64,000 bases of DNA from an uncultured Gammaproteobacteria bacterium (GCA_964518425.1 CAZFGG010000001.1:54597-118596), one strand, 5' to 3'. Positions 15,758 through 63,652 are shown, counted from the stretch's first letter. Program-made: numbers and translations. Notes: a model not told the origin generated them from the letters alone.

Positions 15758-15763
15758 ACGACT

Positions 15764-20128: not shown

Positions 20129-20129
20129 T

Positions 20130-29283: not shown

Positions 29284-29286
29284 ATC

Positions 29287-30028: not shown

Positions 30029-30039
30029 TCTCGAACGGA

Positions 30040-31962: not shown

Positions 31963-31965
31963 TTT

Positions 31966-32526: not shown

Positions 32527-32529
32527 TTC

Positions 32530-34160: not shown

Positions 34161-34176
34161 ATAACCGCTTTCCCTC

Positions 34177-35424: not shown

Positions 35425-35425
35425 T

Positions 35426-42251: not shown

Positions 42252-42269
42252 TTCGTTCCTTGTTTCTCC

Positions 42270-42302
42270 CACCCCCATCTCGTTGAGATGGGGGTGTTTT
42301 TT
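42270..42302 (+). terminator. Rho-independent terminator
   Basis: 12-bp perfect stem CACCCCCATCTC / GAGATGGGGGTG, 3-nt loop, followed by TTTTTT; the ORF-track ATG at 42288 lies inside this hairpin and is not a real start. Confidence 0.75.
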
Positions 42303-42371
42303 GGTTTTCACTATCCCTTGAAAGAACCACTCATTCGCGGTACTCTACGACTAGTGCCATTACAACACCCT

Positions 42372-45200
42372 ATGAACACCGATACGAATGTTGGAACAAA
42401 GTCGCGTGTTTCGCTCAAGTCAGGAGTGCTTGTTGTTGGCTTGGCCCTGAGCGCCACTATTTTTGGCCTGGTCCTCTTTTTGACCGGCGGCGGTGACGAA
42501 GGAAGCGGAAATGAATCAGCCCCCCTTGATGTCAGCGGCCGCTGTCCTGGACGTTTTAGCACCAATATTCGGCTGACCGGACCGATTGACTTGCCAACCC
42601 TTGATCAGGGTGCCGGCGGCGGCTGCTTTGCTCCAACTGCTGATAACCTGATTATTGATGGCAACGGTTTTACCGTTAAAACCGGCGGCGGTAATTTGGT
42701 CTACAGCGCCTATGGAGCATCACACTTGACCGTAAAAAATATTTTCTCCGACGGCGATATTTACTACTTCGGTCCGGCGGCCGGACTGACGATCGACAAT
42801 GTTTGGATCCGGGGCGTCCTCGCTGTCGGCGGTTCGGATGACGCGGTCTTCAAGAACAGTGTTTTCACTGGCAGCGTAGCCATGGATGGCGGATTACGTT
42901 TTCAGTTCACGAACAATACCGTTGATGGGCCGAGTGACCGATTAGTGAACTTTGGCGGACCCGGAACAGCCACCAGCGTTGAAGAGGCTTATCTCAATCC
43001 GCCCGAGCCGGACTCTTTGCGACAATGTTTGTTGACCCGCGACACGATTACTGACAATACCATTATTAACACGGTCGACAATAATTTTAACAACCCGCTG
43101 ACCTTTTTCTATCATTGCCGCCGTGGCGGCACCATCGCCCGAAATACAATCATCGCCACTGACGAATCCCAAGGTGTCTTTATTCGTGATGGCGCGCATT
43201 TCAATACCTTTAGTGATAATATTGTTCGGGTCAATAAAGCGACCGATGGCAATCGGGGTGCCTTCAGTGTGACGGCGGGCACGCCATTCTTAGCTTTGCC
43301 AACCTACAATACCTTCACCCGTAACGCCATCGTCGCTGACAACGCCGCGGCCATGTGGTTGCAATCGTATTCAAACAATAATACCTACACCAACAACATT
43401 GCTTGGTCAAAAACTGGGTATGGGAGCCAACTGTATGTTGGCGAAAACAATGTTTTTGACCACAATACCTTCTATACTGGTGGTAGTGGGAAGAGCGTTT
43501 TGTATGACAGCGATCCACTGAATACGGCCATTGGTTCGCCCGGAAAGAATACCGTCACGAATAATATTTTCAGTAACGCGAACGACAGTATTCTGAAACA
43601 CGACCATTCGGCTGGGTACATCGGCTACGTCGCTCACCATAACATCTATAACACCCGCAGCGGCGCCGCGAATTTTTACGGCACGATGAACCTAGCCCAA
43701 TGGAAAACCACCAGCGGCGAGCAGGCTAGCTCCTTTGAATCATCGCCGGTCTCCACCTCACTCTTCACCAATGCCGCGACTGGGGATTTTAGTCTGGCCA
43801 CGAGTTCGCCCGCCCGCGGAGCGGGGGAAAACGGGAGTGATATCGGCGCGGCGCCGCTTGATTTCAATAAAACCATCTTCCCAAATGTCACGATTTCCTC
43901 ACCGGCCAAGAATACACGCGTCGCTGGACTCGTCACGATTATGGCCGACGCGACGGACACGCTCGGCGTAACCAAAGTTGAGTTCTACCAAGGTTCCACG
44001 CTGCTTGGAACGGACACGACGGCCCCGTACTCTTTTGACTGGAACACGGCTGGTCAACCAGAAGGGCCGCAGATGCTCATTGCCAAGGCCTACAACGGCG
44101 TTAATGTCCGAGTAACGGGCAATCTCGTGACCGTTGATAATATTCCGGATACTGGCTGTACGGAAAACTGGTCCTGTGGCAGCTGGTCGGCCTGCGTTAA
44201 TGGCACGCAAACCCGAACGTGTACTGACGCCAATAGCTGCGGTACCACGCTCAACCGCCCGGCCCTCAGCCAATCCTGCACGACTGGTGGTGACACTGTA
44301 GCACCAACGGTATCTGTCACGGCCCCCAGCAATAATTCCACGGTCAGTGGCACAACCACGATCGCCGCTACCGCGAGTGATAATGTTGGCGTAACAAAAG
44401 TCGAATTTATCAAGGGCTCAACTATTCTCGCTACCGATACAACTGCTCCGTTCGCCTACAGCTGGAACACGGCCGCCGAGACGAATGCCGCCTACACGTT
44501 GACGGCCAAAGCCTACGATGCAGCGGCCAACACTGCCTCGGCGGCGGTGAATGTGACCGTTAGCAACGCCCAAAGCTGTCAAACCTGGCAATGCAGCCCG
44601 TGGGGATCCTGCGTCAACAATGTCCAAAGCCGATCGTGCAATGATATCGGCTACTGGTGCCCGGCTTTAAGTCGTCCGCCGTTAACACAAGACTGCACCT
44701 CCTGCAGTCTCTACAACCAAATCTCTGCACCAGGGGTCCAATTACCAGATGTCCTCTGTGCCCCTCGAAATAAGTGTAACGCTCAGAACCGGATTCAAGA
44801 CATGACTCTGAGTGCGACGTCAATCCAAGCCACCAAACCGCTGACCGTCACGATCAAGTACTTGTGCAATTACAACGCCTCAGACAATGTGACGCTATGG
44901 TACTTTGACGGGAAGAGCTGGAAGACGAGCCCACAACTGTACCGCGGTCCAGCACCAGCCACGCCGCTGACGAATTGTGACGGCACAACGGTTGGGACCA
45001 TCACCTATACCTTCACGCCCAACGCTGCCAACGTCAATATTCCGCAGTACGTTCGAGCGATCGAAGCCGCTGGGACAAACGTCCACGCTGACCAAAATAT
45101 TTGCCCAGACTTCGGCCTGACCGGTGAGGGGGGCGTCATGGATAAGTCGTTCACTGTCACCCCGGGCGGACCAATAAAAAATCCACCGCCGAGATTCTAA
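42372..45200 (+). CDS. Secreted surface protein with right-handed parallel beta-helix region and two Ig-like (Big-type) domains
   Basis: Start moved to ATG 42372 (MNTDTNVGTKSRVSLKSGVLVVGLALSATIFGLVLF, TM/signal); repetitive NxxV/I beta-helix-like rungs (NNTVDG, DNTIINTVDNNF, NNIAWSK, NNIFSNAND); duplicated Ig-like module TISSPAKNTRVAGLVTIMADATDTLGVTKVEFYQGSTLLGTDTTAPYSFDWNTAG / VTAPSNNSTVSGTTTIAATASDNVGVTKVEFIKGSTILATDTTAPFAYSWNTAA; C-terminal Cys-rich part. Confidence 0.55.
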   Translation: MNTDTNVGTKSRVSLKSGVLVVGLALSATIFGLVLFLTGGGDEGSGNESAPLDVSGRCPGRFSTNIRLTGPIDLPTLDQGAGGGCFAPTADNLIIDGNGFTVKTGGGNLVYSAYGASHLTVKNIFSDGDIYYFGPAAGLTIDNVWIRGVLAVGGSDDAVFKNSVFTGSVAMDGGLRFQFTNNTVDGPSDRLVNFGGPGTATSVEEAYLNPPEPDSLRQCLLTRDTITDNTIINTVDNNFNNPLTFFYHCRRGGTIARNTIIATDESQGVFIRDGAHFNTFSDNIVRVNKATDGNRGAFSVTAGTPFLALPTYNTFTRNAIVADNAAAMWLQSYSNNNTYTNNIAWSKTGYGSQLYVGENNVFDHNTFYTGGSGKSVLYDSDPLNTAIGSPGKNTVTNNIFSNANDSILKHDHSAGYIGYVAHHNIYNTRSGAANFYGTMNLAQWKTTSGEQASSFESSPVSTSLFTNAATGDFSLATSSPARGAGENGSDIGAAPLDFNKTIFPNVTISSPAKNTRVAGLVTIMADATDTLGVTKVEFYQGSTLLGTDTTAPYSFDWNTAGQPEGPQMLIAKAYNGVNVRVTGNLVTVDNIPDTGCTENWSCGSWSACVNGTQTRTCTDANSCGTTLNRPALSQSCTTGGDTVAPTVSVTAPSNNSTVSGTTTIAATASDNVGVTKVEFIKGSTILATDTTAPFAYSWNTAAETNAAYTLTAKAYDAAANTASAAVNVTVSNAQSCQTWQCSPWGSCVNNVQSRSCNDIGYWCPALSRPPLTQDCTSCSLYNQISAPGVQLPDVLCAPRNKCNAQNRIQDMTLSATSIQATKPLTVTIKYLCNYNASDNVTLWYFDGKSWKTSPQLYRGPAPATPLTNCDGTTVGTITYTFTPNAANVNIPQYVRAIEAAGTNVHADQNICPDFGLTGEGGVMDKSFTVTPGGPIKNPPPRF

Positions 45201-49987: not shown

Positions 49988-50452
49988 TTACGAAGTAAGC
50001 AGTTTAAAAATTTTGGTGGCCGTGCAATGATCGGTCAGGGCTAAGTTGACATCCGATGCAACTTGAACCTGGTCACCCGCACGCAGCTGGTCCTGGCTCA
50101 GGTCACTCAGCCGGTCACCAGTGAGAGATTTGATGATCGTGTGCTCGTCGACGCTGACGGTGTAGAGACGATGGTGCGGTTGTCCTGAGTCATCAGTAAT
50201 AATGACATCGATGGAGAGCGCCGAGCCTTGAACTGCGGTTACACTCCCGATCATGTCTTGAAACGAACGAGGAGTAGCGGTTGGCGCGACGGTCTGCACG
50301 CGCGGGGTTCGTCGTTGATGCTGCTGGACATAGTTGACCACCAGGGCCACGACCACCAGACCAGCCGCCAGGCTCAGAACAACCCAGAACAGGCGGACCT
50401 GCTGACGATGTTCTTCGACCGATGAGGGGGTGGGTGACATAACGTGGATCAA
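49988..50452 (-). CDS. Hypothetical membrane-anchored protein
   Basis: 154 aa; single TM LFWVVLSLAAGLVVVALVVNYV then soluble domain. Confidence 0.4.
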   Translation of the reverse strand: MIHVMSPTPSSVEEHRQQVRLFWVVLSLAAGLVVVALVVNYVQQHQRRTPRVQTVAPTATPRSFQDMIGSVTAVQGSALSIDVIITDDSGQPHHRLYTVSVDEHTIIKSLTGDRLSDLSQDQLRAGDQVQVASDVNLALTDHCTATKIFKLLTS

Positions 50453-50499: not shown

Positions 50500-50528
50500 T
50501 TGCGAATCGAGGAGAAGTATGGTATAGT
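50500..50528 (+). promoter_or_regulatory. Sigma70-like promoter TTGCGA-17-TGgTATAGT (extended -10) for the tandem secreted-protein array
   Basis: TTGCGA 50500-50505, 17-nt spacer, TATAGT 50523-50528 preceded by TGG. Confidence 0.55.
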
Positions 50529-50584: not shown

Positions 50585-51460
50585 TTGGTCTTGTCACGAA
50601 ACCGAAAAAATACAGACCGACCATCAACCCTGCGACGCACAACCTTGCTGGCAGTTTTCTTCATGGCTGTCGCGACTATGCCGCTTGTTTCGCGGGCCTT
50701 CACTGAACCAAAGGGGTATCCAACAAACTATGTTTCAGTCAACGGTGTCGGTGAGGTACCGCAGTTCCTCAATGCCTCAAGCGTCAACCAGTTAAAAGAA
50801 GGTTCGCTCCTCATTGGTGATCGAAGCGGAAAAATCGCGAACTGCAATGGGGGCACGACAACCGGATGCAGCCGCCTCTGCTTGAACGCCGATCCAGCAA
50901 AAGGCACAACTGATAGTACCTGTATTACCACCTGGCAAGACCTCAACGGTTCGGTCAGTGGTTCTTTCTTGCGACGCTTTGCCGACAACTCGGCTGGTCT
51001 TGATATCGGCTATAGCCGACTGCAAGGCAATAGCGCCTCTGGCCACCTTGTCTCGTTGATTGTTGAACCGAATGCCGCCGCCGGGCACAATGCTCTGCGG
51101 GCCAATGGTCTAGCGGACACGAACTACGCTGCTCAGTTCGGCGGAACGCTCTTCATCGGCAATAAAACGAACGATGCCAAGCTCTGCTTGAACGACGCAG
51201 CAAACGATGGCAATCCAGTTGGGACATGTATTACGAAGTGGTCCGATCTCATTTCGACCACAACGAACATTATCCGTCTCCAAGAGCTCAGGACGTCCAT
51301 TGCTCCGGTTCCCGACCAAGGCAACGCCGGGGTTGTTGGGCCGGTTGAGGTCCCCTCGTTGATCCTCGGACAACCAGCCACCACATTAAATCCTACATTA
51401 AGCTGTGGCGATGGTCTCTGCAGTGCCAGCGAAATAGGGCAATGTCCGCTTGATTGCTAA
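50585..51460 (+). CDS. Secreted protein, member 1 of tandem CLN/C-I-T-S-W-motif family
   Basis: Signal peptide (…LLAVFFMAVATMPLVSRA); motifs SRLCLNADPAKGTTDSTCITTWQDL and AKLCLNDAANDGNPVGTCITKWSDL; C-terminal CGDGLCSASEIGQCPLDC. Confidence 0.6.
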   Translation: MVLSRNRKNTDRPSTLRRTTLLAVFFMAVATMPLVSRAFTEPKGYPTNYVSVNGVGEVPQFLNASSVNQLKEGSLLIGDRSGKIANCNGGTTTGCSRLCLNADPAKGTTDSTCITTWQDLNGSVSGSFLRRFADNSAGLDIGYSRLQGNSASGHLVSLIVEPNAAAGHNALRANGLADTNYAAQFGGTLFIGNKTNDAKLCLNDAANDGNPVGTCITKWSDLISTTTNIIRLQELRTSIAPVPDQGNAGVVGPVEVPSLILGQPATTLNPTLSCGDGLCSASEIGQCPLDC

Positions 51461-53036
51461 ACGCATGCCCCGAACGCTTCCGATCTTCATTTCTTCCGCG
51501 GCCCTCTTACTCTTCAGCTTGATCGTGATTGGTCGGACCGCAATAGCCGGACCAATAACCGGCGGCGGGGGACAACCGCCGTTTGTGAAGCTGGGTGTCT
51601 ATCAGGGAGTAATTTCGGTCGTCCCGCCCGGTGGAGCTGACGTGATGGAGATTGGTAACCTTGGCCGGGATATCGCGAGTAGCACGACGATTTACCTCCG
51701 CCCGGGGAGCCTGCCCGAGAAGATGTGTATCGGCGGGGTGAATAATGGCCAAGCCTGTCCGCCAGCAGCCTGCACTGGTGGGGTCTGCAGTAATGTTGCC
51801 CCGCGATTCTATAAATACGCGACATATGCGGAATCCGTACTTGATCTCGGAACTGGGCGACTCTGTCTGAATCCAAACGGCGCAGGAGTTTGGGATTGCC
51901 GGGGCTTATGGCCAAGCACCGGCGGGGCGGGCGATACGAACTGGCAGACGACCACGGTTGGCAGCATGACTGATCTCCAACCAATTTCCGGTTCGCCGGT
52001 GGTTGACTCAATTCGCGCCGGCACGCTGGCCAATCCGGTTCCGAGTGCGAACGGGACCGGCCTTGACGTCGAAACCAATGCTAACGCTCCGGCCGTTATT
52101 TTGAACGGGTTTCAGGGATTGACGACCGGATATTACAATTCCGGGCTGGGCTCAACCGTCGGCGGCCGAGTTGATATTTTCGGGAAACTACGGGCTCTCC
52201 TCTACGCTGGGAATGACTTGGAAATCGGCGCAAATGGAGGCGTGACGCCCTACAATGCGGCGAACGTCTATAGCCAGCTCAATAACATCAAAACCCACAT
52301 TGACGCTGATACCTTTGATGGGACGACCCCCATGCTGTTCCCAACGAATGGGAATTTGTTCTGGAAGGCCCAAACGGCCGGCCCATCGACGATCCACCGG
52401 ATGTGCTTACGAACGACGTCCGGTTACCTTTGTGTCGGTGGAACGAATCCGGGCACGAATGCCGGAACCCCCTGTCCTAATGGCAACAACACCGGTCCCG
52501 ACGCGACCAAGTGCATCGGCGGCGCGACATGTCAAACAATGTGCAGCACGACCGATTCAATCTGCGCCGCCAGCCCGGCAGCGAAGCATTGTGTGAGTAC
52601 CGGAGCAGCCTGTGTGACCTCACTCAACTGTCCAGGGGGCGACGCCTGTGTCCGCGGGCACTTAGTGACGGTAGCTGGCGGAACCGGTGTTTCGCCGACG
52701 TGTACACAGAACTGTCAAACAGTCTGCGCTGGATCAGCGTTTGATTTTGGCGCTGGTGGTGGGTCGCCAGCAGCTGGAAATAATATCATGTGTGATGGCC
52801 AAGCCGGCGCTGGAACCTGTAGCGCCTATGGGGAATATGCGACGGCCGATAGCGGCCAGACCGCAGCGCTCAACAACGCTTATGGGTCGTGCCAGCCGTT
52901 TCTCGACCTCGGCGGTGGAGTATTCTCTTGGCGCCAAATCTGCGATTGTTATTTGAGCGCTCCGAAGAACTACCTCCGAGCTAACCCGCCGGGCACGGGG
53001 GGCGATCTGTGCTCGAAACCGCTAACCGCTTCATAG
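51450..53036 (+). CDS. Secreted Cys-rich protein, family member 2
   Basis: Signal peptide; shared N-module PFVKLGVYQGVISVVP...LGRDIASSTTIYLRPG; RLCLNPNGAGVWDCRGLW; Gly/Cys-rich C-terminus; 11-nt overlap with upstream gene. Confidence 0.6.
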   Translation: MIAKRMPRTLPIFISSAALLLFSLIVIGRTAIAGPITGGGGQPPFVKLGVYQGVISVVPPGGADVMEIGNLGRDIASSTTIYLRPGSLPEKMCIGGVNNGQACPPAACTGGVCSNVAPRFYKYATYAESVLDLGTGRLCLNPNGAGVWDCRGLWPSTGGAGDTNWQTTTVGSMTDLQPISGSPVVDSIRAGTLANPVPSANGTGLDVETNANAPAVILNGFQGLTTGYYNSGLGSTVGGRVDIFGKLRALLYAGNDLEIGANGGVTPYNAANVYSQLNNIKTHIDADTFDGTTPMLFPTNGNLFWKAQTAGPSTIHRMCLRTTSGYLCVGGTNPGTNAGTPCPNGNNTGPDATKCIGGATCQTMCSTTDSICAASPAAKHCVSTGAACVTSLNCPGGDACVRGHLVTVAGGTGVSPTCTQNCQTVCAGSAFDFGAGGGSPAAGNNIMCDGQAGAGTCSAYGEYATADSGQTAALNNAYGSCQPFLDLGGGVFSWRQICDCYLSAPKNYLRANPPGTGGDLCSKPLTAS

Positions 53037-53040
53037 TTCC

Positions 53041-53946
53041 ATGCGCTCAATTCCGATTATTACGCTCATCGTCAGCTTCGTCAGTTTTGTTGCTCTGGCG
53101 TCACGACCCGCGATCGCCGGCCCAATCACGAACGGGCCATCGAGCGCGCCGTTCACGAAACTTGGTGTCTATCAAGGCGTCGTCAGTGTTGTCTCGAATG
53201 CCGACAATGCTGCTCTTGAGCTCGGCTACCTCGGCCGCGATATTGCCAGTACGGGTGACCTCTATTTCCGGCCATCCTTCACCGCCCGGGCGAATGGCGC
53301 CTACTTTACGCGGAATGGGAACAGTGCCGACTTTTACCTGAGCGGGAAACTCTGCCTGTTTAAACATGTCAGCAACATTATTGATCTGAACAGTATGTCC
53401 TGCAGTGACGGTTGGCCATCGGGGAGTGGTTCCGGCTCAAGTCTCTGGACGATCGTGGCCGATCCGGTAGCCGACCCCTTCACGAACGCCGTCAACGGCA
53501 ATTTCCTCCAGCCGATCAATACGAACTATGGAGTGCATATCGGCAGCTCCTTATCACCGGTGACCGGCGGGACAGCGCTGACTCTTGATGGCGCATCGTA
53601 CTCTTACCCACTCGGTGTCGCGAACCTTGGCTCCGGCGCAGCGCTCCAAACTCAAGGTCAAGTGAATTTAAACGCCTATGGCTACGTCAATGGTTTGATC
53701 TACATCAACGGTCAAGAAGTCTGGCATCGGCAGGGATTTTTCGGCGGGCCCGCTGCTCATGAAGGCCTTGGCTCGGGGCTGGATGCCGATATTGCTAATG
53801 GCAACAATGTCACGCTTGAACCCGCGACGTCCTGTAATGATGACGATACGAAACCCCGGGCCGCCTGTATTTGCTTTACCATCTTCCGAGTCGGATCGTC
53901 GCCGAATCCTTCAAAGCACTGCGCTGCTTTTTCAAACGCTTTCTAA
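53041..53946 (+). CDS. Secreted protein, family member 3
   Basis: Signal peptide; PFTKLGVYQGVVSVVS...LGRDIASTGDLYFRPS; GKLCLFKHVSNIIDLNSMSCSDGW. Confidence 0.55.
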   Translation: MRSIPIITLIVSFVSFVALASRPAIAGPITNGPSSAPFTKLGVYQGVVSVVSNADNAALELGYLGRDIASTGDLYFRPSFTARANGAYFTRNGNSADFYLSGKLCLFKHVSNIIDLNSMSCSDGWPSGSGSGSSLWTIVADPVADPFTNAVNGNFLQPINTNYGVHIGSSLSPVTGGTALTLDGASYSYPLGVANLGSGAALQTQGQVNLNAYGYVNGLIYINGQEVWHRQGFFGGPAAHEGLGSGLDADIANGNNVTLEPATSCNDDDTKPRAACICFTIFRVGSSPNPSKHCAAFSNAF

Positions 53947-54818
53947 TGAAGAAATCTTCAATTATTGCCATAAGTTTCTTAGCCCTGATCGTTAGCTGGA
54001 CATTCTGGCGTCAAACCGCCTTGGCCAGCCCCTCTTCAGGTTCAAGTACAACCTCGCCGACGACCGTCTACGATGGCGTCATCAGCGTCGCTCCGGGCGA
54101 TGTTGGGTCCGGGATTCTCGAACTTGGTTCGTCGGGGTCAGACATCGCTAGTTCGAGCGATATCTACGTGCGTCCAGAGCGGTTGTCTGAAACGAATGCC
54201 GTACGATTTTCGCCGAACGGGAAGTCCACCGTCCACCTTTACGCCTACGGCGGCCTTTGTCTCGGCGGTCTGTGCCGTGACACGTGGCCGGCGGTCAGCG
54301 GCGGGACCTTTTGGAACCTGGTTGGAGGCCAGTACGTTGAACCGGCTACCCTCAGCCAAGGCGTAACGTTTACCAAGACCCGCGCCGGCGGCGGGGCGGC
54401 CATGGAAGTTTTTTCGAACAACACGACTGCGGCCGCCTATATCAGCAATGTCAGCGCTGGCGCTAGTGCGGCGGCCTTAACAATCAACGGCCCGGCGTAT
54501 ATCGGAGGTGACCTGAATGTCACGGCCAGCGGCGGAGATGAAATTACTCTGCACGGCGGCGTCTGCCAGGGCGGTCCGGCCGACGGTGTCATCTGCTCGA
54601 GTAGCCCCAATTGTTCGCCGGGAATATGCGCGATTAGTGATTACCGGGTCTGGTGGTCGGGTAATGATGGCCGTGGGTCGGGGCTTGACGCGTCAAAGCT
54701 CGACGGGATTGATTTGGACTTTAAATACAACATCAGCAATAGCTCATGTAATTCCGGCTCGCTCAATTGCTTGTGTGGACAGTTTCCGAGTTTCACCGAA
54801 TGCTTAAAACTTCAATGA
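53946..54818 (+). CDS. Secreted protein, family member 4
   Basis: ATG 53946 overlapping upstream TAA; signal peptide MKKSSIIAISFLALIVSWTFWRQTALA; VYDGVISVAPGDVGSGILELGSSGSDIASSSDIYVRPE; GGLCLGGLCRDTWPAV. Confidence 0.55.
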   Translation: MKKSSIIAISFLALIVSWTFWRQTALASPSSGSSTTSPTTVYDGVISVAPGDVGSGILELGSSGSDIASSSDIYVRPERLSETNAVRFSPNGKSTVHLYAYGGLCLGGLCRDTWPAVSGGTFWNLVGGQYVEPATLSQGVTFTKTRAGGGAAMEVFSNNTTAAAYISNVSAGASAAALTINGPAYIGGDLNVTASGGDEITLHGGVCQGGPADGVICSSSPNCSPGICAISDYRVWWSGNDGRGSGLDASKLDGIDLDFKYNISNSSCNSGSLNCLCGQFPSFTECLKLQ

Positions 54819-56857
54819 TTCGTCGCCGACAACTCTTACTCTTGGCGGGTCTCGGACTCGGTGGACTATTGTTGTCGAAGGTCGCCCTCGCCCAAACGTA
54901 CGTCAACCCGTCCACCTCGTTTACTGGCCCGGTCGCGCCGGCTATCAACTCGTCATTGAATGACCAGCGGAAACTTGGTTCGCTGGGCGTCGGGCGGGCC
55001 GTGAATCCACAAAAATTCTGTCTCAACGCGACGAGCCTGGCCGACGCTACGAATTGCATTTCTTCGTGGTCTGACCTGTCCGGTCAATTCGGCGGACCAT
55101 TTGTCAGTTTATCCCAAGATGCGTGGACGCTGGCAACGCCCAGTAGCGCCTGTGGAGCTGGTACCCCGAAATCTCTTTGTACCGGTGACTATGCCAGCCA
55201 AAGCGGCTTCGTTCATGTTCAAGCCTCCTCACTGACGACTCCCCAGCAAGCCTTTTCAACGATCGTTCAGGGTCCAAATCTCCAGCTCTGTGATTATCCC
55301 CGTAATGGCAGCAAGACTCCCGGCCATTGTATCGCCGGCAGTCCGATGGCTGGGCAGAGCTGCTTCTTCAATAATGATTGCGGTTACCGCTCAACAGCAA
55401 TTTATGGCAATGACGGAAGTCCCACTAATGCTCAAAATGCAGCCGGTTATTTTTCGGGCGTTGTTTATGTGACGAGTCCGACGAGCGATCCCCTCCTTCC
55501 GAAGGGTCGTATTTGCTTAAATGGAGCGACGGAAGATTATTTTAATGATGTTCCTGGTGGAACTTGTATTACCTCTTGGTCTGAACTCGGCGCCAGTGGC
55601 TCAGGAACATATGTCAAACGTCAGCAAGGTACCCCGATTCTTCAGAACCCCGGGGCCGTGATCAGCGGAGTGATTGTCATGTCCTCGGCGACGACTGGCT
55701 CAACGGACGGATTACCAAGTACCTTCACCTGCGGCGACAGTTTTTGTAACGCGACGGCCGTCCCGCCCGAAACAGCAGCCTCTTGCCCGATTGATTGCTT
55801 TGCGATTCCTACGCCGCAGTTGTCAGTGGCCATTGCAAGTGACAAGGTGAACATGACAATTACCACGAAAACCCAACAACCGGCTGGACCAGTGAATATT
55901 ATTGTGGTCCGATCTGTTGGCCTGACTTCAAGTTTTGTTCCGGTCAATGGCGTGGCCTATACGATTGGCGAAACTATTGGTAGCGACATTATTGTTTATG
56001 CCGGCAGTGCTACGCAGAATAACACTTTTGTACAACAGGATACCACCTTGCCCGGCGCCGGGACGTACAGCTATCGCGCTTATCAAGCGAACAGCTATCC
56101 CCGGTACGGCGGCCCAGCTGACGCCCCACTTGGTCAAATTTATAAACTACAAACCTCGGTTAGTCCGAACGGCTCGGCCTTCATCAGTAGCAACGATGGA
56201 CAGATTGTCCACTGTTCAGCCAGCTCCGGCACCGGGTGCGTGGCCTACTACCTCTCCAGCAATACTCCGACGGTTGTGATCAGTTTTGATTCGATCGTCA
56301 CGACCAATACCTTTAATGGATGGACCGGATGTAACTCGACGGGTGGCTCTGGAGCGGGGAGTACGTGCACCGTTATCATGAGCACAAATAAATCGATTGT
56401 GGCCAGCTTCTCCAGTGGCGGTCCCAAAGGATGTTTCACCGGATCAACCTTGGTTGATACGCCGGCTGGACCTCGGCCGATAGTTGACCTTCGGGCTGGC
56501 GACGACGTTTTCACCTATGATCAAGCCACTGGTCAAACCGTGGTGAGTCCGATCCTTCGAACCTTCGTGCACTCTGATCAGGCATATGGCGTCGTGACCT
56601 TTACCGACGGAACAACCATTAACGTCACGTCAATTCACCCCTTCTACGACGCCCGGTGGAAAATGTGGCGAGAGATTGGTCACATGCGACCCGGTGATAT
56701 AGTTCTGCAAGGCCGAGGTCTCTCTGCCCGCCCAATCCGCATCGTCTCTCTCGAATTCTCGAGCGGGCAGGGAACGGTCTATAATATTGAAGTCGGCGGC
56801 CACCATTCCTACTACGTCAACGGCATCCTGGTTCATAATAAAGGCCGCGAGGGATAA
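54815..56857 (+). CDS. Secreted protein, family member 5, with C-terminal Hint (Hedgehog/intein-like, BIL-type) autoprocessing domain
   Basis: ATGA overlap at 54815-54818; signal peptide MIRRRQLLLLAGLGLGGLLLSKVALA; QKFCLNATSLADATNCISSWSDL and GRICLNGATEDYFNDVPGGTCITSWSEL; C-terminal about 140 aa GCFTGSTLVDT...VTSIHPFYD...VYNIEVGGHHSYYVNGILVHNK (Cys1, TxxH, terminal HN). Confidence 0.65.
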   Translation: MIRRRQLLLLAGLGLGGLLLSKVALAQTYVNPSTSFTGPVAPAINSSLNDQRKLGSLGVGRAVNPQKFCLNATSLADATNCISSWSDLSGQFGGPFVSLSQDAWTLATPSSACGAGTPKSLCTGDYASQSGFVHVQASSLTTPQQAFSTIVQGPNLQLCDYPRNGSKTPGHCIAGSPMAGQSCFFNNDCGYRSTAIYGNDGSPTNAQNAAGYFSGVVYVTSPTSDPLLPKGRICLNGATEDYFNDVPGGTCITSWSELGASGSGTYVKRQQGTPILQNPGAVISGVIVMSSATTGSTDGLPSTFTCGDSFCNATAVPPETAASCPIDCFAIPTPQLSVAIASDKVNMTITTKTQQPAGPVNIIVVRSVGLTSSFVPVNGVAYTIGETIGSDIIVYAGSATQNNTFVQQDTTLPGAGTYSYRAYQANSYPRYGGPADAPLGQIYKLQTSVSPNGSAFISSNDGQIVHCSASSGTGCVAYYLSSNTPTVVISFDSIVTTNTFNGWTGCNSTGGSGAGSTCTVIMSTNKSIVASFSSGGPKGCFTGSTLVDTPAGPRPIVDLRAGDDVFTYDQATGQTVVSPILRTFVHSDQAYGVVTFTDGTTINVTSIHPFYDARWKMWREIGHMRPGDIVLQGRGLSARPIRIVSLEFSSGQGTVYNIEVGGHHSYYVNGILVHNKGREG

Positions 56858-56860
56858 GAC

Positions 56861-58219
56861 ATGATTACGACCCGACTCCATCATCGCTCGTCCCGCTCAG
56901 TCTTCATTGTGGCTATTGTTGTCATGACATTGTTGTCGATATCCCGTCCGCTCTCCGCCCAAGTCTACATCGACCCAACTGGTCCGGCTGTTGGCGGTCG
57001 CTCGGCCACGCCGCTTGATACGTCGGCCACGACCCAACAAAAGCTCGGTTCCTTGCTGATTGGCCAGACCGGTCTTCCGGCCTCGCGGATTTGCTTGAAC
57101 GGGACAGGCAACCTCGTGGGTGGTGATGATGCGTCTCCCGGTAACCCAGGCGGCCACTGCGTGACCAGCTGGGCGAATGTGGTGAATTCCCTTGGCGCTC
57201 CCTTCGTTGATCTCGTCAAAACTGCGCCGAGTGGAGCGGCCGGAAATATCTCCAGCTACAACGCACCGAACTCGGGCTATGCTCGTCTGAAAGCCAGCGG
57301 CCCGGGAACGGCCAGCACGTTTTTGACGGAAGCCAATAACGCCGTTGGCGCCGGGACGACGACCGCTCTCTACGCCAGTACAGGGTATATTGAAGACTAC
57401 GCCGGATATTTTTCCGGAAAGTTCAGTATTGAACCGACGGCCATTAACCGAGGACGGCTCTGCCTCAATAGCACCTGTAACTACAACGCGGGCGATCCGG
57501 CTTGTCAGAACTTGATTAACAATTTCGGCTACTACTGCGTCTCTGACTGGTCACAAATCATCTCGAACACGAATGATCGACTCTCGCTACAAACATCCGT
57601 CAGTCCAACAATCGAGTCGGGCACGGTCTTGCTCAAAGAGGGGTTCAGTGCCGGCGCGGCGGTGATTGGGGTGCCCCCGTCGACTACGCCGCTCGGTACG
57701 ACCGTGCCATTCTGTGGCGATGGATTGTGTAGCCGGGAAATTCACGAAGATCAGTCAGGGAACGCGAACTACTGTGCCCTTGACTGCGAAACAATTCCTT
57801 TGCCCAATAACGTCACCGCCCAAACGATCACCTTTGGCATAGGGGTGACCGTCACGCCGACCGCTATTGCTTCAAGTAATACCCCGTATTTCCTCGTTGT
57901 TCGATCGTCGAATCCGAGCTTTGTCTTTGAGCCGCAAGACGGGGTGAAGTACAAAATCGGAGGAAATAGTACGTTCGCTATCGTTTACGCAGTGCAACGG
58001 CCAAATGCGAGCCCGTTCACCTTTTTGGACACCGCTTTCGGGATGATTGCAAATAAAGTCTACACGTACCATGTGTACGAAGCGAATCCTTATCCGCGGT
58101 ATCTGAAGGTCGCCAGTGGTTCGGGATTCAATTACACTTCAGTTACGGCCACGGCCGGACCAGCAGCGGTTGGCACCGGACCTGAGGAAAGTCCCGACGG
58201 CGGAGACATTCAACTCTAG
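56861..58219 (+). CDS. Secreted protein, family member 6
   Basis: Signal peptide; SRICLNGTGNLVGGDDASPGNPGGHCVTSWANV and GRLCLNSTCNYNAGDPACQNLINNFGYYCVSDWSQI; FCGDGLCSREIHEDQSGNANYCALDC. Confidence 0.6.
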   Translation: MITTRLHHRSSRSVFIVAIVVMTLLSISRPLSAQVYIDPTGPAVGGRSATPLDTSATTQQKLGSLLIGQTGLPASRICLNGTGNLVGGDDASPGNPGGHCVTSWANVVNSLGAPFVDLVKTAPSGAAGNISSYNAPNSGYARLKASGPGTASTFLTEANNAVGAGTTTALYASTGYIEDYAGYFSGKFSIEPTAINRGRLCLNSTCNYNAGDPACQNLINNFGYYCVSDWSQIISNTNDRLSLQTSVSPTIESGTVLLKEGFSAGAAVIGVPPSTTPLGTTVPFCGDGLCSREIHEDQSGNANYCALDCETIPLPNNVTAQTITFGIGVTVTPTAIASSNTPYFLVVRSSNPSFVFEPQDGVKYKIGGNSTFAIVYAVQRPNASPFTFLDTAFGMIANKVYTYHVYEANPYPRYLKVASGSGFNYTSVTATAGPAAVGTGPEESPDGGDIQL

Positions 58220-58224
58220 CGACC

Positions 58225-61200
58225 ATGGAACAACGACCACCAACGCATCAATCAACGCCTGACGCTTCTCGTCGAATGAGCTTAGCGCTGAAATTAGCGA
58301 TGGTGGGTGCTTTGTGCCTACCGCTGCTGATCAGCCGATCCTCTCAGGCCAGCTTTGAGGCGCCATCAATCAGCACCGTCAATATTATTCCGACCACGTT
58401 CTACGGGGTGTGGGGAAATGCCCGACATGCTCGGTTACCCACGGGAAACAACCTGGCGAATGATCCGACCGGAGACGAAGAAAACTTTTATGATATTTGG
58501 GCGGTCGGGGCAGACACGCGCGGTCTGGCGGGTGGGTGGCCGTGGCTCGACAAAGGGAGTATTTACCATTTCGACGGTACGCAATGGAGTAACGTCGAAT
58601 CAGATTCAGACAATAATTTCGACGGCCAGAATCAGCCAACAACATTCTATTCAGTCGTCGGCCAAGCCCCACCGGGAAATGGAAACGCTGAAATATGGTT
58701 TGGCGGCGAGGCTGATGCTCGGGACGGCTGCTCAACTATTCATTTTTTTGACACGAACGAGCACCTTGAACGCGTGCCCGAAACGTGGCGCAACCTCTAT
58801 CGCGCCCGGGTGCGTGACCTCAATAAATTAGACTGTACGCAGGCCGGCCACAACGTCAACTTGGACAGCGATGTCTACGCCATGGCCGCCGACCAGAATT
58901 TCGTCACCGGTATCGTGGCTGGTGGGGCCAACGGCATGTTGTACAGCCACTCAGTGTACTATGTGGCGGGAACAACAAAAGACACGTGGGATCAAATTTC
59001 CTTTCCGAACACTCAAAATATTACGGGTTTGGCCTACGCCTTGAACCGAACTGCATATGCCGTGGGCACGACCGCCACGACAACGGATATTAACGGCAAG
59101 CATCATCTCGATCGCGACTGTACAAATTCTGGCAGCCAAACAAGCGGTTTGTACAAAATTTCTGGCGGTGTTGTATTCTCATTGAAGTCACTTAGCGGGG
59201 CCTGTTTCTACGGCTTGACCGTTGGCAATCTTCCGTCGATCCGACCGGATCACAGCGCGAATTACGTCACGATTTGGATTGCCTCGTCCAAAGGAGTCTA
59301 TCGTTACGACGAAGGTTCCAACACCCTGACGGGGCCGCTCAGCGGCACGTCGGGCACGGTACTGCGAAGTATCACGAGCGTTGAACAACAGGGTGGAACC
59401 GGCCAAAATCTCCTGCGCAACCCGGATTTTGAATCCTGGGACTCGGATCCGAGTAATGCTGCTACCGATCTGCCGAATGACAATGCCACGACCTGGTTGG
59501 CCTCCGACTCATTCTTTGGTACCAATAACAGCGCCGGGAATTGTCTTGATGCCGTCAATAACAAGAACAGTAAAGACGTCATCGTTGAAGGCGGATCAAG
59601 TAATGTGGATCATGGCACCTATGCTCTCAAAGTAGCTCCGGCTGTTTACTACAATAGCCAGTCGAACTGTAATACGAACACCAATCCCCAATACACGGGC
59701 TTTGATGCGGTTTTCCAAACTGTCCCGTTGACGAACTGGGAGGGGCGAAAAATACACGTCACCGGAAAATACAAAGTGCAGTTCACGGGCGCCGCGAGCG
59801 CCCCGCACCCTCAAGGCGGAGTATCGATACTCTGCCCGACTGGCGGATACAGCGATCCCCAAGATGAACCGGACTGCAGTTATGAAAACCGTTCGGCTAT
59901 TCGGACCGCCAATCAAGGTAATACAACCGGCGATCCCAAGGCTGACGGCAAAGGTTTCTTGACCTTCGACTACACGATCTCGGTTAATAATACGCAGTTC
60001 TTCCCTCGAATTCTCGGCGGGACGAAAAGTCCCCGCCCGACGGATGCTGGCATGGTTCTGCAGATTCAATGTGAGGGTACGTATGGCGCTCAGGTCTGGT
60101 GTGATGACCTGCACGTTGAAGCGGTCGATGAGCCAGCCTTGCCGGCCTATGATCGCTTTGTCGTGACGGCCGTTGGCGAAGCGGGGAATATCATGTCGAC
60201 GTCCGACGGCCGTGCAGTGGGAATCGGTGGCGGTGACGCGAACGCATTTATCGTTGAGCGGGATGACGCGACGTCGACTGACCGACTTAATGGCGTCTGG
60301 GCAGTTGATCCTCAACATACCTACGCCGTCGGTCAAAACTCAATTATTGCCCAGCACCGCTCAGGCAACGTGACCGGCGGGATCTGGGTTGGCACGGCCT
60401 CACCGGTGTCATCGGGTAACGCTACGCTTGGCTGGATTTCCTCGAATTGTGCCAATCAACGCGACGCCAGCGGATCATCGCTCTGTACTCGGAGCCCGGA
60501 TACGTTTGGTCTTGATTTCCAAAACAACCAGCTCTCCGGCCGAGCTTGGTTTGGTAAGCAATACACGTCAGCCACACACGAAGACCAAGAAGCGACCAGT
60601 TTAGGCTCCTGCCAAGGCACTGCCCTGCTGGCTGGCCGACCCAATACCTACTCGATGACCGGCGCCTGTGATCGAACGAACCGCTGGTGCTTTAGCGACC
60701 ATAACCATGCCTGTAACCGCGATTTTGATTGCTATGGCCGCTGTCAAAAAGACCAGGGCGTTGTCTGTGCCGTCGATCTTGACTGCGAAGGAAAAACCGA
60801 CCTACCGGTCGGTACCCAAACGCCTCAGGCAACTAGCACGAAGTTATCCTCTCCTCCGGCCCTTCGACAAGTTTGTGGATCAAATAACGGCAGTCCCCAA
60901 GCATGCACCGGCTTAGGATGGTTGTCCTTTAATCAAGCTGACACCGGGGCCACGCCAGGGAGTTCCTGTGCTAGTAACGTGGATACCTGCTACCGGCTAC
61001 AAAATAACGGAGATATTATTGATGGTTGGGGTCAATTCCTGACGATGGCGAACCCCAATGATCCGAATCAGGATATCCCCAACAGCTGGGTCCATCTTCG
61101 GGGAGCCGATGTCTGCGGCGGGACAAGCGGCACCGCTTGCGCCAGCACCGCACCAAACTACGGGTATTACAACTGTCAAAACTGTACCGGTGCCTTATCG

Positions 61201-62457
61201 TGTAGTTTTTGCCAGGACAACCAGCAACACAGCTGTTTGTCCGGAACAAATTGTACCTACTATTGCCAGGGAACTGCCCAACCGTGCACGACGGATGCCG
61301 TCTGCGGTAGTGGGAAGAGCTGCGGCCCGAAGAGCGTCTGCTCGCTTGATCAAACAACAATTTGCTCGGGCGACCCCGATTGTACCGGGGGGAAGGGCCG
61401 ATGTGTCCAAGGCGCCGCCTGTCAGCAAGTGTCGAGCTGTAGTCAGTACGGAGTCAATTTTAATCCCCAGCGCCAACAGTTCAGCGGCTACGCCTGGAGT
61501 TCTGCCTTGGGATGGTTGGACTTCAGTTTTCTCCAGGTTGGTAACCCGCCGTACTTACAGACTCGTCTTGGCGATATCTACGCTAAGGGACGCGTTGGAA
61601 ATAGTTTAACTATTCCCGCGCCGGGAGGTTTATGCAACGCCACCTACCTCATCTCAGCCGGTAATTCCATCACCAGTTTCTGCTCGGTCCAAGGCGCGGC
61701 CGGTTTGCAGTCGCAAGCTCCAACTATCCCCTCCGGCGGTCCAACGAATAGCTACACGAACGTTCTCGGACGGCTTGATGTCACCGGGTTAGAAAAAGAT
61801 GTCGGTGGCGGGAGGAATAAATTTGGCACCCCGATCGTGGCGCTGGCTCCGGACGTGACCAACGACATAAGTTATAGCTTTCCTGACTATGGTCCTGATA
61901 CCCTTGGCGGTAATCACATCCCGCTCAATGGGAAGATCTTTACCGTTGGGACCGGGGGGAGCGATACGATTACGATCAACCAGCTCCTTCGATTCCTGCC
62001 AGGGACCACTTCACCCATCAGCAGCGGGGCGGGAGTGTTGATTGTCAACGGTAACTTACGCGTCAACAACCAATTGACCTATCACTCAGACAGTGTTTCT
62101 ACTATTTCTGACCTTCGTTCGCTCGCCTCATTCGTCGTCATTGTCAAAGGCAACCTCTTCATTGACCAAACCGTCACCAACATGGTCGGGACGTACTATG
62201 TACTCGGTACGGTTTGCACGGCTCCAGGGTCTCAAGCGAGCTGCACGTACGTATCGAACGGCAGTCAGTACCCCTTAACTATCCGAGGTCTCCTGATCGC
62301 GAAAGCCTTTGGATTTAATCGGACCTATGCTGGCACCATCGACAATCCGTCTCCATCGGAATTGATTATCTTCGATGGTCGTTTCCAGTCAAACCCCCTG
62401 CCGGGCATGACGGATTTCGCTAGCGCTTTGCCAAATACCTCAGGAGCCAATCAGTAG
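58225..62457 (+). CDS. Giant (1410 aa) secreted protein with Cys-cluster modules and GW(L/I)(S/D)F repeats
   Basis: Signal peptide (…LKLAMVGALCLPLLISRSSQA); Cys clusters (CDRTNRWCFSDHNHACNRDFDCYGRCQKDQGVVCAVDLDCEG; CSFCQDNQQHSCLSGTNCTYYCQG); LGWISSNC, GLGWLSFNQ, ALGWLDFSF. Confidence 0.65.
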   Translation: MEQRPPTHQSTPDASRRMSLALKLAMVGALCLPLLISRSSQASFEAPSISTVNIIPTTFYGVWGNARHARLPTGNNLANDPTGDEENFYDIWAVGADTRGLAGGWPWLDKGSIYHFDGTQWSNVESDSDNNFDGQNQPTTFYSVVGQAPPGNGNAEIWFGGEADARDGCSTIHFFDTNEHLERVPETWRNLYRARVRDLNKLDCTQAGHNVNLDSDVYAMAADQNFVTGIVAGGANGMLYSHSVYYVAGTTKDTWDQISFPNTQNITGLAYALNRTAYAVGTTATTTDINGKHHLDRDCTNSGSQTSGLYKISGGVVFSLKSLSGACFYGLTVGNLPSIRPDHSANYVTIWIASSKGVYRYDEGSNTLTGPLSGTSGTVLRSITSVEQQGGTGQNLLRNPDFESWDSDPSNAATDLPNDNATTWLASDSFFGTNNSAGNCLDAVNNKNSKDVIVEGGSSNVDHGTYALKVAPAVYYNSQSNCNTNTNPQYTGFDAVFQTVPLTNWEGRKIHVTGKYKVQFTGAASAPHPQGGVSILCPTGGYSDPQDEPDCSYENRSAIRTANQGNTTGDPKADGKGFLTFDYTISVNNTQFFPRILGGTKSPRPTDAGMVLQIQCEGTYGAQVWCDDLHVEAVDEPALPAYDRFVVTAVGEAGNIMSTSDGRAVGIGGGDANAFIVERDDATSTDRLNGVWAVDPQHTYAVGQNSIIAQHRSGNVTGGIWVGTASPVSSGNATLGWISSNCANQRDASGSSLCTRSPDTFGLDFQNNQLSGRAWFGKQYTSATHEDQEATSLGSCQGTALLAGRPNTYSMTGACDRTNRWCFSDHNHACNRDFDCYGRCQKDQGVVCAVDLDCEGKTDLPVGTQTPQATSTKLSSPPALRQVCGSNNGSPQACTGLGWLSFNQADTGATPGSSCASNVDTCYRLQNNGDIIDGWGQFLTMANPNDPNQDIPNSWVHLRGADVCGGTSGTACASTAPNYGYYNCQNCTGALSCSFCQDNQQHSCLSGTNCTYYCQGTAQPCTTDAVCGSGKSCGPKSVCSLDQTTICSGDPDCTGGKGRCVQGAACQQVSSCSQYGVNFNPQRQQFSGYAWSSALGWLDFSFLQVGNPPYLQTRLGDIYAKGRVGNSLTIPAPGGLCNATYLISAGNSITSFCSVQGAAGLQSQAPTIPSGGPTNSYTNVLGRLDVTGLEKDVGGGRNKFGTPIVALAPDVTNDISYSFPDYGPDTLGGNHIPLNGKIFTVGTGGSDTITINQLLRFLPGTTSPISSGAGVLIVNGNLRVNNQLTYHSDSVSTISDLRSLASFVVIVKGNLFIDQTVTNMVGTYYVLGTVCTAPGSQASCTYVSNGSQYPLTIRGLLIAKAFGFNRTYAGTIDNPSPSELIIFDGRFQSNPLPGMTDFASALPNTSGANQ

Positions 62458-62478: not shown

Positions 62479-62507
62479 TTGACTTGCGGTAGATTTTATG
62501 CTATACT
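62479..62507 (+). promoter_or_regulatory. Sigma70-like promoter TTGACT-17-TGcTATACT upstream of pilM
   Basis: TTGACT 62479-62484, 17-nt spacer, TATACT 62502-62507 preceded by TGC. Confidence 0.45.
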
Positions 62508-62587: not shown

Positions 62588-63652
62588 ATGCCAGCATTTT
62601 CTCCAAAACAAAGCTTTCTCGGAATAGATATCGGCACTTCTAGCCTCAAGGTGGTGCAAATTGGCGACGATAACGGCCGCCCGCGCCTGATGACCTACGG
62701 CTACATTGAACAGCGGAACGACATCGTCAAAAGTGACGCCGCCGCTAGCCAACAATCGGTCACGGCTGCCCTAAAATCGCTCTTACGCGAGGCACGCGTG
62801 ACGACCACGAAAGTGATCGCGGCCTTGCCGAGCTTCACTGTTTTTAGTTCGATCATCAGCCTACCCCTGATGACCCGGAAAGAACTCAATTCGGCCGTTC
62901 GTTGGGAAGCAAAAAAATTTGTACCGATGCCGATCGATGACCTTGTCTTGGACTGGAAACTGTTAAAGGAAAGTCCAGTCAAAGGCCAGCCTGCCGATCG
63001 CGCCCCGAAGAACCTCCGCGTCCTGATTACGGCCGCCCCCAAGAGCTTAGTCAAGCGATACATTGATATTTTTAAAGCCGCCGACTTACAGCTCGAGAAC
63101 CTTGAAACCGAAGCGCTGGCTCTCGAACGCTCCTTAATCGGGAGTGATCCGGCGCCGGTCATGATCGTCGATATCGGTGCCGTCGCAACGAACATCGCTA
63201 TCATGGTCGACGGTATTCCCTTGATCAATCGCAGTATCGATGTGGGCGGAGATACGATTACGAAGTCGATTGCCCAAAGCATGACCGTTGATCACGATCG
63301 GGCCGAACAATTCAAACGCGACTTCGGTTTGAGTACCAGCCAACAATCAATTTCCCAGGTCCCAAAAACAATTGAATTCGTCCTGAGCTCGATTGTGAAT
63401 GAAATCCGCTTCGTCTTGAATCTCTACCGGAACCAGGGGACTGGTCCGATTGAAAAAATTATTCTGGCCGGCGGTTCAGCTTTTCTCCTCAACCTGCCAG
63501 CCTATCTAGAAAAAACCTTGTCGATCAAAACATTCATTGGTGATCCTTGGGCACGGGTCGTCTACCCGGTCGAGCTCAAACCCGTGTTGCAAGAAATTGG
63601 TCCGCGTTTCGCGGTCTCGATCGGATTAGCCATGCGAGAAATCGTCGCCTAA
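62588..63652 (+). CDS. pilM: Type IV pilus assembly protein PilM (actin-like ATPase fold)
   Basis: N-terminal FLGIDIGTSSLKVVQI; C-terminal ILAGGSAFLLNLPAYLEKTLSIKTFIGDPW; 354 aa typical for PilM. Confidence 0.8.
   Translation: MPAFSPKQSFLGIDIGTSSLKVVQIGDDNGRPRLMTYGYIEQRNDIVKSDAAASQQSVTAALKSLLREARVTTTKVIAALPSFTVFSSIISLPLMTRKELNSAVRWEAKKFVPMPIDDLVLDWKLLKESPVKGQPADRAPKNLRVLITAAPKSLVKRYIDIFKAADLQLENLETEALALERSLIGSDPAPVMIVDIGAVATNIAIMVDGIPLINRSIDVGGDTITKSIAQSMTVDHDRAEQFKRDFGLSTSQQSISQVPKTIEFVLSSIVNEIRFVLNLYRNQGTGPIEKIILAGGSAFLLNLPAYLEKTLSIKTFIGDPWARVVYPVELKPVLQEIGPRFAVSIGLAMREIVA

Follow-up and report, generated by a model that had tools for sequence, protein, structure and literature searches.

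Patescibacteria live attached to other microbes, and type IV pili are their best-supported attachment organelle; to our knowledge, the host-recognizing parts of these bacteria are known for only a few Saccharibacteria. Type IVa pili depend for priming and for their tips on sets of minor pilins with PilY1, as encoded by fimU-pilVWXY1E in Pseudomonas and by PilY1 plus minor pilins in Myxococcus. PilY1-type non-pilin adhesins act with type IV pili, and the Saccharibacteria adhesin pilin PilX2 combines a non-canonical signal peptide with a β-propeller (PMC11623550). Here we describe an array of six consecutive, tightly packed genes (g1 to g6; 50585-58219, + strand), whose signal-peptide products share sequence motifs, in a window of 64,000 nucleotides, the whole stretch of DNA that was analyzed, from an assembly deposited as an uncultured Gammaproteobacteria bacterium (GCA_964518425.1, CAZFGG010000001.1:54597-118596). 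The array and a giant seventh gene of the series (g7) lie next to the pilus assembly gene pilM, and their products may form an extracellular, disulfide-stabilized assembly working with the pilus machine. The locus recalls the minor-pilin/PilY1 sets in that several small paralogous subunits are accompanied by one very large non-pilin protein with a Sec signal, and in that the genes lie beside pilus assembly genes, have apparently extracellular products and evolve faster than the machinery. Unlike minor pilins, g1 to g6 have neither a class III signal nor a pilin fold and are Cys-rich proteins built on a different module, while g7 has no detectable similarity to PilY1; the likeness is one of analogy only.

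All-against-all BLASTP separates g1, g5, and g6 (group A; E 1e-10 to 1e-23) from g2, g3, and g4 (group B; E 4e-5 to 2e-17), with no significant match between these two subfamilies among the six proteins. Profile comparison by hhalign nevertheless identifies A and B as distant homologues (probability 91%, E 1e-6) over 107 columns, which cover the first module up to the YAGYFSG strand. Each group A protein carries two copies of a ~60-residue Cys-loop module and a CGDGxC...CxxDC knot. The module consists of a strand ending in xIG, the LCLN motif, a loop, C(I/V)xxW and a strand hVxL, and the two copies are internal repeats of one another (hhalign probability 98.7%, E 3e-16). Each of g1, g5, and g6 contains two copies of the strict motif C[LI]N-x(3-35)-C[IV][TSK]xW, six in total, and each of g2, g3, and g4 one copy of a relaxed form; neither form was found elsewhere among the 36,297 residues of six-frame open reading frames (ORFs) scanned in the window. 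The preliminary description of this DNA, which had proposed paralogous proteins with one or two Cys-bracketed loops apiece and an N-terminal module in members 2 to 4, thus holds on all three counts. Its knot, CGDGxC...C[PA][LI]DC, is indeed present in g1, g5, and g6 and is missing from g2, g3, and g4, just as the VYxGV...GRDIAS...RP N-module is confined to g2, g3, and g4 among the six. In alignments with database relatives the motifs behave as positional homologues: both loops keep their Cys, Leu, Asn, and Trp, and the knot its four Cys, in invariant or nearly invariant form. Across 112 family members, 2 to 42 residues separate the bracketing Cys, with invariant residues flanking the loop.

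The minimal group A member is g1 (50585-51460; 291 aa, probable start TTG 50591), which consists of a signal peptide, two Cys-loop modules (50873-50944, RLCLNADPAKGTTDSTCITTWQDL; 51179-51250, KLCLNDAANDGNPVGTCITKWSDL) and a CGDGLC...CPLDC knot (51404-51457, CGDGLCSASEIGQCPLDC) that forms the extreme C-terminus. In g5 (54767-56857; ORF of 696 aa), the same core (loops at 55013-55078, KFCLNATSLADATNCISSWSDL, and 55508-55588, RICLNGATEDYFNDVPGGTCITSWSEL; knot at 55730-55798, CGDSFCNATAVPPETAASCPIDC) contains a Cys-rich insert and is followed by an FN3-like domain (55820-56116, assigned through alignment to the FN3 domain of g6), an InlB-B-repeat-like segment and a C-terminal Hint domain. The 452-aa g6 protein (56861-58219) has two Cys-loops (57086-57181, RICLNGTGNLVGGDDASPGNPGGHCVTSWANV; 57455-57559, RLCLNSTCNYNAGDPACQNLINNFGYYCVSDWSQI), a knot (57713-57787, CGDGLCSREIHEDQSGNANYCALDC), an FN3 domain (57797-58090, residues 313-410), whose β-sandwich was confirmed by fold search, and a disordered tail. 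All of these features lie on the + strand, as do those of group B.

The group B N-module follows the consensus AGPITGG...KLGVYQGVISV...EIGNxGRDIAS...IYxRP, and the loops of this group are divergent, of the forms LCLN...C..LWP, LCLF...C.DGWP, and LCLGGLCRDTWP. The longest member, g2 (51450-53036; 528 aa, 26 Cys, probable start ATG 51465), has an N-module at 51546-51704 (AGPITGG...KLGVYQGVISVVP...EIGNLGRDIAS...IYLRP), a single divergent Cys-loop (51858-51920, RLCLNPNGAGVWDCRGLWPST) and a long, Cys-rich C-terminal half. In g3 (53041-53946; 301 aa, six Cys), the N-module (53116-53274) and a divergent Cys-loop (53347-53424, KLCLFKHVSNIIDLNSMSCSDGWPSG) are joined by a GSGLDAD motif and a C-terminal tail with four Cys. 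The N-module of g4 (53871-54818; ORF of 315 aa, probable start ATG 53946) is the most diverged of the copies (54024-54176) and accompanies a short Cys-loop (54252-54296, GLCLGGLCRDTWPAV).

The invariant Asn of the CLN motif, whose sites in the window include 50879-50887, 55019-55027, and 57092-57100, often falls within an N-x-S/T sequon. Such a sequon is present in 35% of the first loops and in 48% of the second, the Ser plus Thr background being ~20%. This excess may reflect either glycosylation or a structural preference.

Searches of Pfam-A, NCBIfam, PHROGs, and PDB sequences yielded no credible match to the Cys-loop core or to the group B N-module, and g1 to g4, g6, and g7 give nothing beyond noise in Pfam, NCBIfam, and PHROGs. 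Among g1 to g6 the recognizable domains are confined to FN3 (g5 and g6) and the C-terminal Hint of g5; FN3 and the InlB-B repeat (Flg_new_2, PF18998), both known from bacterial surface proteins, are here accessory to the cores of g5 and g6. AlphaFold2 (AF2) monomer models of g6 and g3 are elongated and β-rich, with a low predicted template modelling score (pTM) and no compact fold; the N-module of the g3 model is all-β at a predicted local distance difference test score (pLDDT) of 83-92. A fold search with the g3 model returned no significant match, and one with the g6 model returned the FN3 domain only. Profile matches in PDB to antibody heavy-chain variable (VH) chains (best E 2e-4, others E ≥ 0.04) were judged spurious because they stem from chance similarity to the short YAGYFSGRxxI stretch. 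Neither the Cys-loop module nor the group B N-module or g7 has a curated family, a solved relative, or a fold match, and our literature searches turned up no description of them. The earlier view that the family has no named homolog is thus sustained for the cores, for which profile searches yielded no well-characterized domain.

Word-indexed searches returned 11 relatives of g6, 17 of g3, and 45 with the group B profile, none of them named. A hidden Markov model (HMM) search of 1.84 billion representatives gave 1317 matches, 412 at E ≤1e-10 and 155 at E ≤1e-30, a total that is inflated by generic giants of FN3 repeats and includes several ordinary type IX secretion system or FN3 proteins. The full core is present in ~115 of the best 150 matches (50%-identity cluster representatives), the remainder of these being giant FN3-repeat proteins matched through the knot and FN3 part only. 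Related loci were collected by means of the N-module alignment, six each from genome and metagenome collections, and the genome records that contain relatives are labelled Patescibacteria group or Candidatus Kerfeldbacteria. This supports a restriction of the family to Patescibacteria/Kerfeldbacteria-type genomes, and on the strength of these labels we assign the window genome to the Patescibacteria, or candidate phyla radiation (CPR); the window also carries type IV secretion system (T4SS) genes typical of Patescibacteria. A lineage-specific family, as first proposed, is therefore supported at the level of this group and is not unique to the window genome. One related locus (L008, CAYGGC010000005.1), which has the same organization as the window and a ClpC 75% identical to that of the window, comes from a metagenome-assembled genome labelled 'uncultured Gammaproteobacteria bacterium', and this label is probably wrong. 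A phage origin was considered and rejected, since the cores have no PHROGs match and no relatives of the family were found in viral contigs. Profile and fold comparisons likewise gave no significant similarity to tail fibre families.

The N-termini of all seven proteins show a basic n-region, then a hydrophobic stretch and then an AxA-type site (for example AIA|GPIT, ALA|QTYV, and LSA|QVYI), as read off the sequence rather than taken from a predictor. The signal peptide forms the sole long helix of the g6 and g3 AF2 models, and in the alignments of both groups conservation begins directly after the AxA site, with highly conserved mature N-termini of the form Q-x-(F/Y)-(I/V)-E-P in group A and GPITGG...KLGVYQGV in group B. 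The mature proteins g1 to g7 contain 10, 26, 6, 10, 18 (plus the catalytic Cys of the Hint domain), 10, and 46 Cys, respectively, and their composition is low in charge, with abundant Gly, Ser, Thr, Ala, and Asn. Even Cys counts, low charge, and signal peptides together fit secreted, disulfide-bonded proteins and support the assignment of g1 to g6, from their sequences, as extracellular proteins exported by Sec, in keeping with the signal peptides noted at the outset. Prepilin-like processing, and with it a pilin identity of g1 to g6, was rejected in view of the AxA-type sites and the lack of a class III signal and of a pilin fold.

When the most plausible start codons are used, the junctions between g1 and g7 range from -4 to +5 nt. 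The g1/g2 gap is +4 if g2 starts at ATG 51465, and that of g2/g3 is also +4; ATG 53946 of g4 overlaps the g3 stop as TAATG; g4 and g5 share an ATGA overlap if g5 starts at ATG 54815, the other candidate being ATG 54800, as in the database protein P0030; and gaps of +3 and +5 nt separate g5 from g6 and g6 from g7 (58225-62457, + strand; 1410 aa). Given this spacing, the seven genes look like one translationally coupled operon, which bears out the six overlapping or abutting + strand genes of the first reading. The strong promoter that was assigned to them is not borne out: in the divergent intergenic region 5' of g1 there is a weak candidate, TTGCGA-17-TATAGT with a TG element (50500-50528, +), that matches at 9 of 12 positions, and promoter-like sites are no more frequent in the region than in shuffled sequence.

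By subfamily classification, the cluster is kept in 13 independent loci. Wherever the flank is long enough, the - strand side holds ClpC, HtpX, LemA, and a small membrane protein, and the + strand side holds the group A and B genes, the g7 orthologue, and PilM, followed, where the contig extends, by PilN-PilO-p91-PilB, in which p91 is a 91-aa protein between PilO and PilB in the relatives. In every locus with sufficient flank, pilM comes directly downstream of the array and g7, and the pilus-side order also holds in divergent loci (L010, with a PilM of 61% identity). Neither the giant Cys-rich partner nor the pilus genes that follow it figured in the preliminary description. Upstream of the giant gene the subfamilies are ordered A B B B A A in the window, L008, and L013/L016, A A A B B B in L001 and L010, A A A B in L007, A A A in L014, and A A B in L012. 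In BLAST comparison of the window with L001, each of g1 to g6 has a distinct best match; the same holds for all six in L008, and distinct best matches appear in L013 as well. The L001 counterparts of g1 to g4 are genes of 287, 483, 289, and 281 aa, respectively, that of g5 is a 545-aa gene without Hint, and that of g6 a 295-aa gene without FN3. Across L001, L008, and L013 the counterparts of g1 to g6 are 26-41% identical, as against 71-79% for ClpC, PilM, and LemA in the same genome pairs, a pattern expected of surface-exposed proteins.

Rapid diversification, which the preliminary description had proposed, is thereby supported. It had gone further and regarded the genes as variable surface or effector proteins, that is, as an array that changes by recombination or copy number. 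The excess divergence over the neighboring genes, the strongly variable length of the Cys-bracketed loop, and the changes in gene number and order between lineages all speak for such an array, but each of the six genes has its own counterpart in the loci compared gene by gene, and no toxin or enzymatic domain is apparent. The paralogues share no DNA repeats >34 nt, and hence neither gene conversion nor cassette recombination is indicated. The between-strain variation for which a check had been suggested did not appear either, near-identical loci from other assemblies differing at 0-1 positions over 2.4-19.9 kb, although these data sets may overlap. This explanation is thus very improbable and largely refuted, and g1 to g6 fit a fast-evolving but fixed set of distinct, co-produced structural subunits and do not fit a variable or effector array.

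Fast change combined with conserved counterparts, invariant Cys brackets, and conserved N-termini points to an extracellular heteromer, and a link to the pilus is favored by the shared strand, the invariant juxtaposition, and a giant Sec-exported partner recalling PilY1-type adhesins. We infer heteromer formation and the pilus link, as well as the role of the loops and the Hint chemistry set out below, and we tentatively propose, at a probability of roughly 0.45, that g1 to g6 and g7 form an extracellular, disulfide-stabilized assembly that works with the adjacent type IV pilus machine in host attachment. In this model, g1 to g6 would be six different structural subunits of one assembly, three from each subfamily, co-produced with g7 from the translationally coupled operon, and each would be exported by Sec and cleaved at its AxA site. 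The conserved mature N-termini, with the N-module in group B, would supply the constant contacts, and the invariant Cys pair would bracket a surface loop free to vary in length and sequence. The resulting complex could serve at the cell surface or on the pilus as a host-attachment or adaptor complex with PilM and the PilN-PilO-p91-PilB machine, as a functional analogue, not a homologue, of the minor-pilin/PilY1 set. A stronger form, in which this non-pilin heteromer of three A subunits, three B subunits, and g7 replaces the minor-pilin/PilY1 complex as a priming, tip, or envelope-crossing adaptor with hypervariable host-recognition loops and one subunit fixed or released by Hint, is unlikely; if true, it would represent a new class of pilus accessory apparatus on a new fold. 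Even as proposed, an undescribed family in two subfamilies offers a candidate, open to testing, for the apparatus through which a Kerfeldbacteria-like lineage contacts its hosts.

Several observations weigh against the proposed assembly and its pilus role. No ORF ≥70 aa of the window or the related loci matched a regular expression for the canonical prepilin signal (G|FTLxE), and the AF2 models of g6 and g3 do not show the pilin fold of a long N-terminal helix on a β-sheet. The cores of the AF2 monomers reach a medium pLDDT of 65-80 and contain few secondary-structure elements. The number of genes in the array varies from three to six with the lineage. The synteny with ClpC-HtpX-LemA is nearly as conserved as that on the pilM side and, as the related genomes are all fairly close to the window (ClpC 65-81% identical), the adjacency to pilM could be inherited genome order. 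In addition, 130 nt lie between g7 and pilM itself (62588-63652, +; PilM_2, E 8e-45), and a separate promoter-like site for pilM falls in this gap (TTGACT-17-TATACT with a TG element, 62479-62507, +). Lastly, in L005, proteins with the conserved group B N-module are encoded far from any pilus genes, in the interval that separates the suf Fe-S operon from sodA.

In the main rival explanation, the proteins are general envelope or surface-layer components of wall-poor, ultrasmall cells and lie beside pilM through inherited gene order. Conservation of both flanks and the separate promoter-like site of pilM speak for this explanation, the lone N-module proteins in unrelated contexts suggest a general surface-docking module, and a low-charge composition rich in Gly, Ser, Thr, and Asn and the lack of pilin features agree with it. 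Yet the array always lies on the same strand as, and immediately upstream of, the pilus genes and is divergent from LemA, and L012, where two small unannotated genes separate LemA from ClpC and no HtpX was detected there, still keeps the array linked to the giant gene and pilM. Moreover, a coupled operon for six or seven different subunits in low copy is easier to reconcile with a defined complex than with a bulk layer protein. The envelope explanation is accordingly doubtful, though a serious one; should the pilus link prove to be inherited gene order only, the family would still be a new group of CPR surface proteins, of moderate interest. The L005 proteins are two adjacent products (9893-12810) that share the N-module and differ in their C-terminal parts, which contain repeats of the YAGYFSG type, and they indicate that the N-module is a reusable secreted-protein module in this lineage.

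Elongated, strand-rich monomers can also be read in terms of the fibres that bacteria and archaea build by strand exchange, such as TasA fibres and archaeal threads. The proteins could accordingly form a separate Sec-dependent heteropolymeric fibre in which strands are exchanged through the mature N-termini and g7 serves as the tip or base. The high conservation of these N-termini right after the cleavage site fits this proposal, as do the low pTM and the lack of a compact fold in the monomer models, but comparisons of structure and sequence revealed no fibre-forming family with significant similarity, relatives are absent from viral contigs, and six distinct single-copy subunits argue against a homopolymeric shaft. 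We regard a fibre of this kind as distinctly unlikely.

Within the proposed pilus-linked heteromer, g5 would differ from the other subunits through its C-terminal Hint domain (56432-56839, +), which has a G|CF junction at Cys556, a TSIH block, and a VHN block. The C-terminus scores 50.6 bits against PT-HINT (PF07591; cutoff 27.7) and 17.1 against intein_Cterm (TIGR01443; cutoff 15.6), and the catalytic residues G|C556-F, T-S-I-H, and V-H-N691 are present, followed by a tail of only five residues (KGREG). A C-terminal Hint recurs in five other family members, with tails of 3-9 residues; the catalytic residues are kept in P0068, P0055, P0102, and P0060, while P0083 retains the AAHPF and VHN blocks and lacks the N-terminal Cys junction. 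The +1 residue after the domain is Lys, or Ile in P0060, and since neither can replace a Cys, Ser, or Thr nucleophile, the Hint of g5 cannot splice and is not a protein-splicing intein. It resembles PT-HINT, bacterial intein-like (BIL), and Hedgehog domains in scoring above the Pfam cutoff and in its G|CF junction, TxxH block, and terminal HN, and differs from them in lying at the extreme C-terminus with neither a toxin domain nor a sterol-recognition region. The domain (Hedgehog-like; G|CF...TxxH...HN) probably self-cleaves, which would leave an activated C-terminal glycine on g5 that is released or transferred to another nucleophile. A recurrent C-terminal Hint of this type would place Hedgehog-type autoprocessing in a new setting, at the surface of a bacterium.

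The g5 C-terminus finds its best Pfam match in PT-HINT, the pretoxin-HINT family, and we therefore also considered whether the locus encodes a polymorphic toxin or a contact-dependent effector. Only KGREG follows the HN of g5, and 3-9 residues follow the domain in the other members; no toxin domain was found; no immunity gene is present, the next gene being the paralogue g6; and L001, L008, and L013 have counterparts that fall short of g5 by 130-145 residues, phmmer with the g5 Hint region giving no match in any related locus. This scarcely credible interpretation was rejected.

The giant partner g7 has 46 Cys in its mature part, mostly in CxxxxxC-type runs at residues ~796-1072 that resemble the Cys-rich half of g2 and the insert of g5. 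It also contains repeated YGxxF...G(Y/R)AW...GW(L/I)xF motifs (GYAWS..GW..F type) and a β-helix-like C-terminus (GAGVLIVNGNL...VVIVKGNLFI). No Pfam or PDB sequence match was obtained for g7, and its orthologues give sub-threshold Pfam matches only (Beta-prop_HVO_0234, E 0.008, in one orthologue; DUF7305, E 0.003), the first of which is the sole pointer to a β-propeller such as that at the C-terminus of PilY1. A g7 orthologue of ~1000-2000 aa is present in each syntenic locus that extends far enough. On the other side of the array, a 154-aa single-pass membrane protein is encoded divergently from g1 (49988-50452, - strand), with counterparts in L008, L013, L001, L007, and L012 and none detected in L010. 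It diverges as fast as the array (25-32% identity) and may be part of the same system.

Elsewhere in the window, a conjugation-type T4SS-like cluster typical of Patescibacteria (28804-36601) comprises PrgI (28804-29283), a VirB4/TraG-like ATPase (30040-31962), and T4SS_pilin-domain proteins (33072-34160 and 35306-36601). Upstream of it, four consecutive giant ORFs of 1878, 1383, 1454, and 1196 aa (5973-23720, + strand), with accessory Pfam domains only (a PSII_BNR β-propeller, Big_7, Glucodextran_B, fn3, and DUF642), are another block of large surface proteins. Between tRNA genes and ClpC lie two secreted, surface-type proteins (41313-45200), a 312-aa NHL-repeat β-propeller protein followed by a 970-aa protein with a β-helix, DUF5123, and Big_7. 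Near the start of the window, a leucyl-tRNA synthetase ORF (156-2429) carries a NUDIX domain (residues 193-312) between its editing domain and catalytic core, an unusual fusion or insertion.

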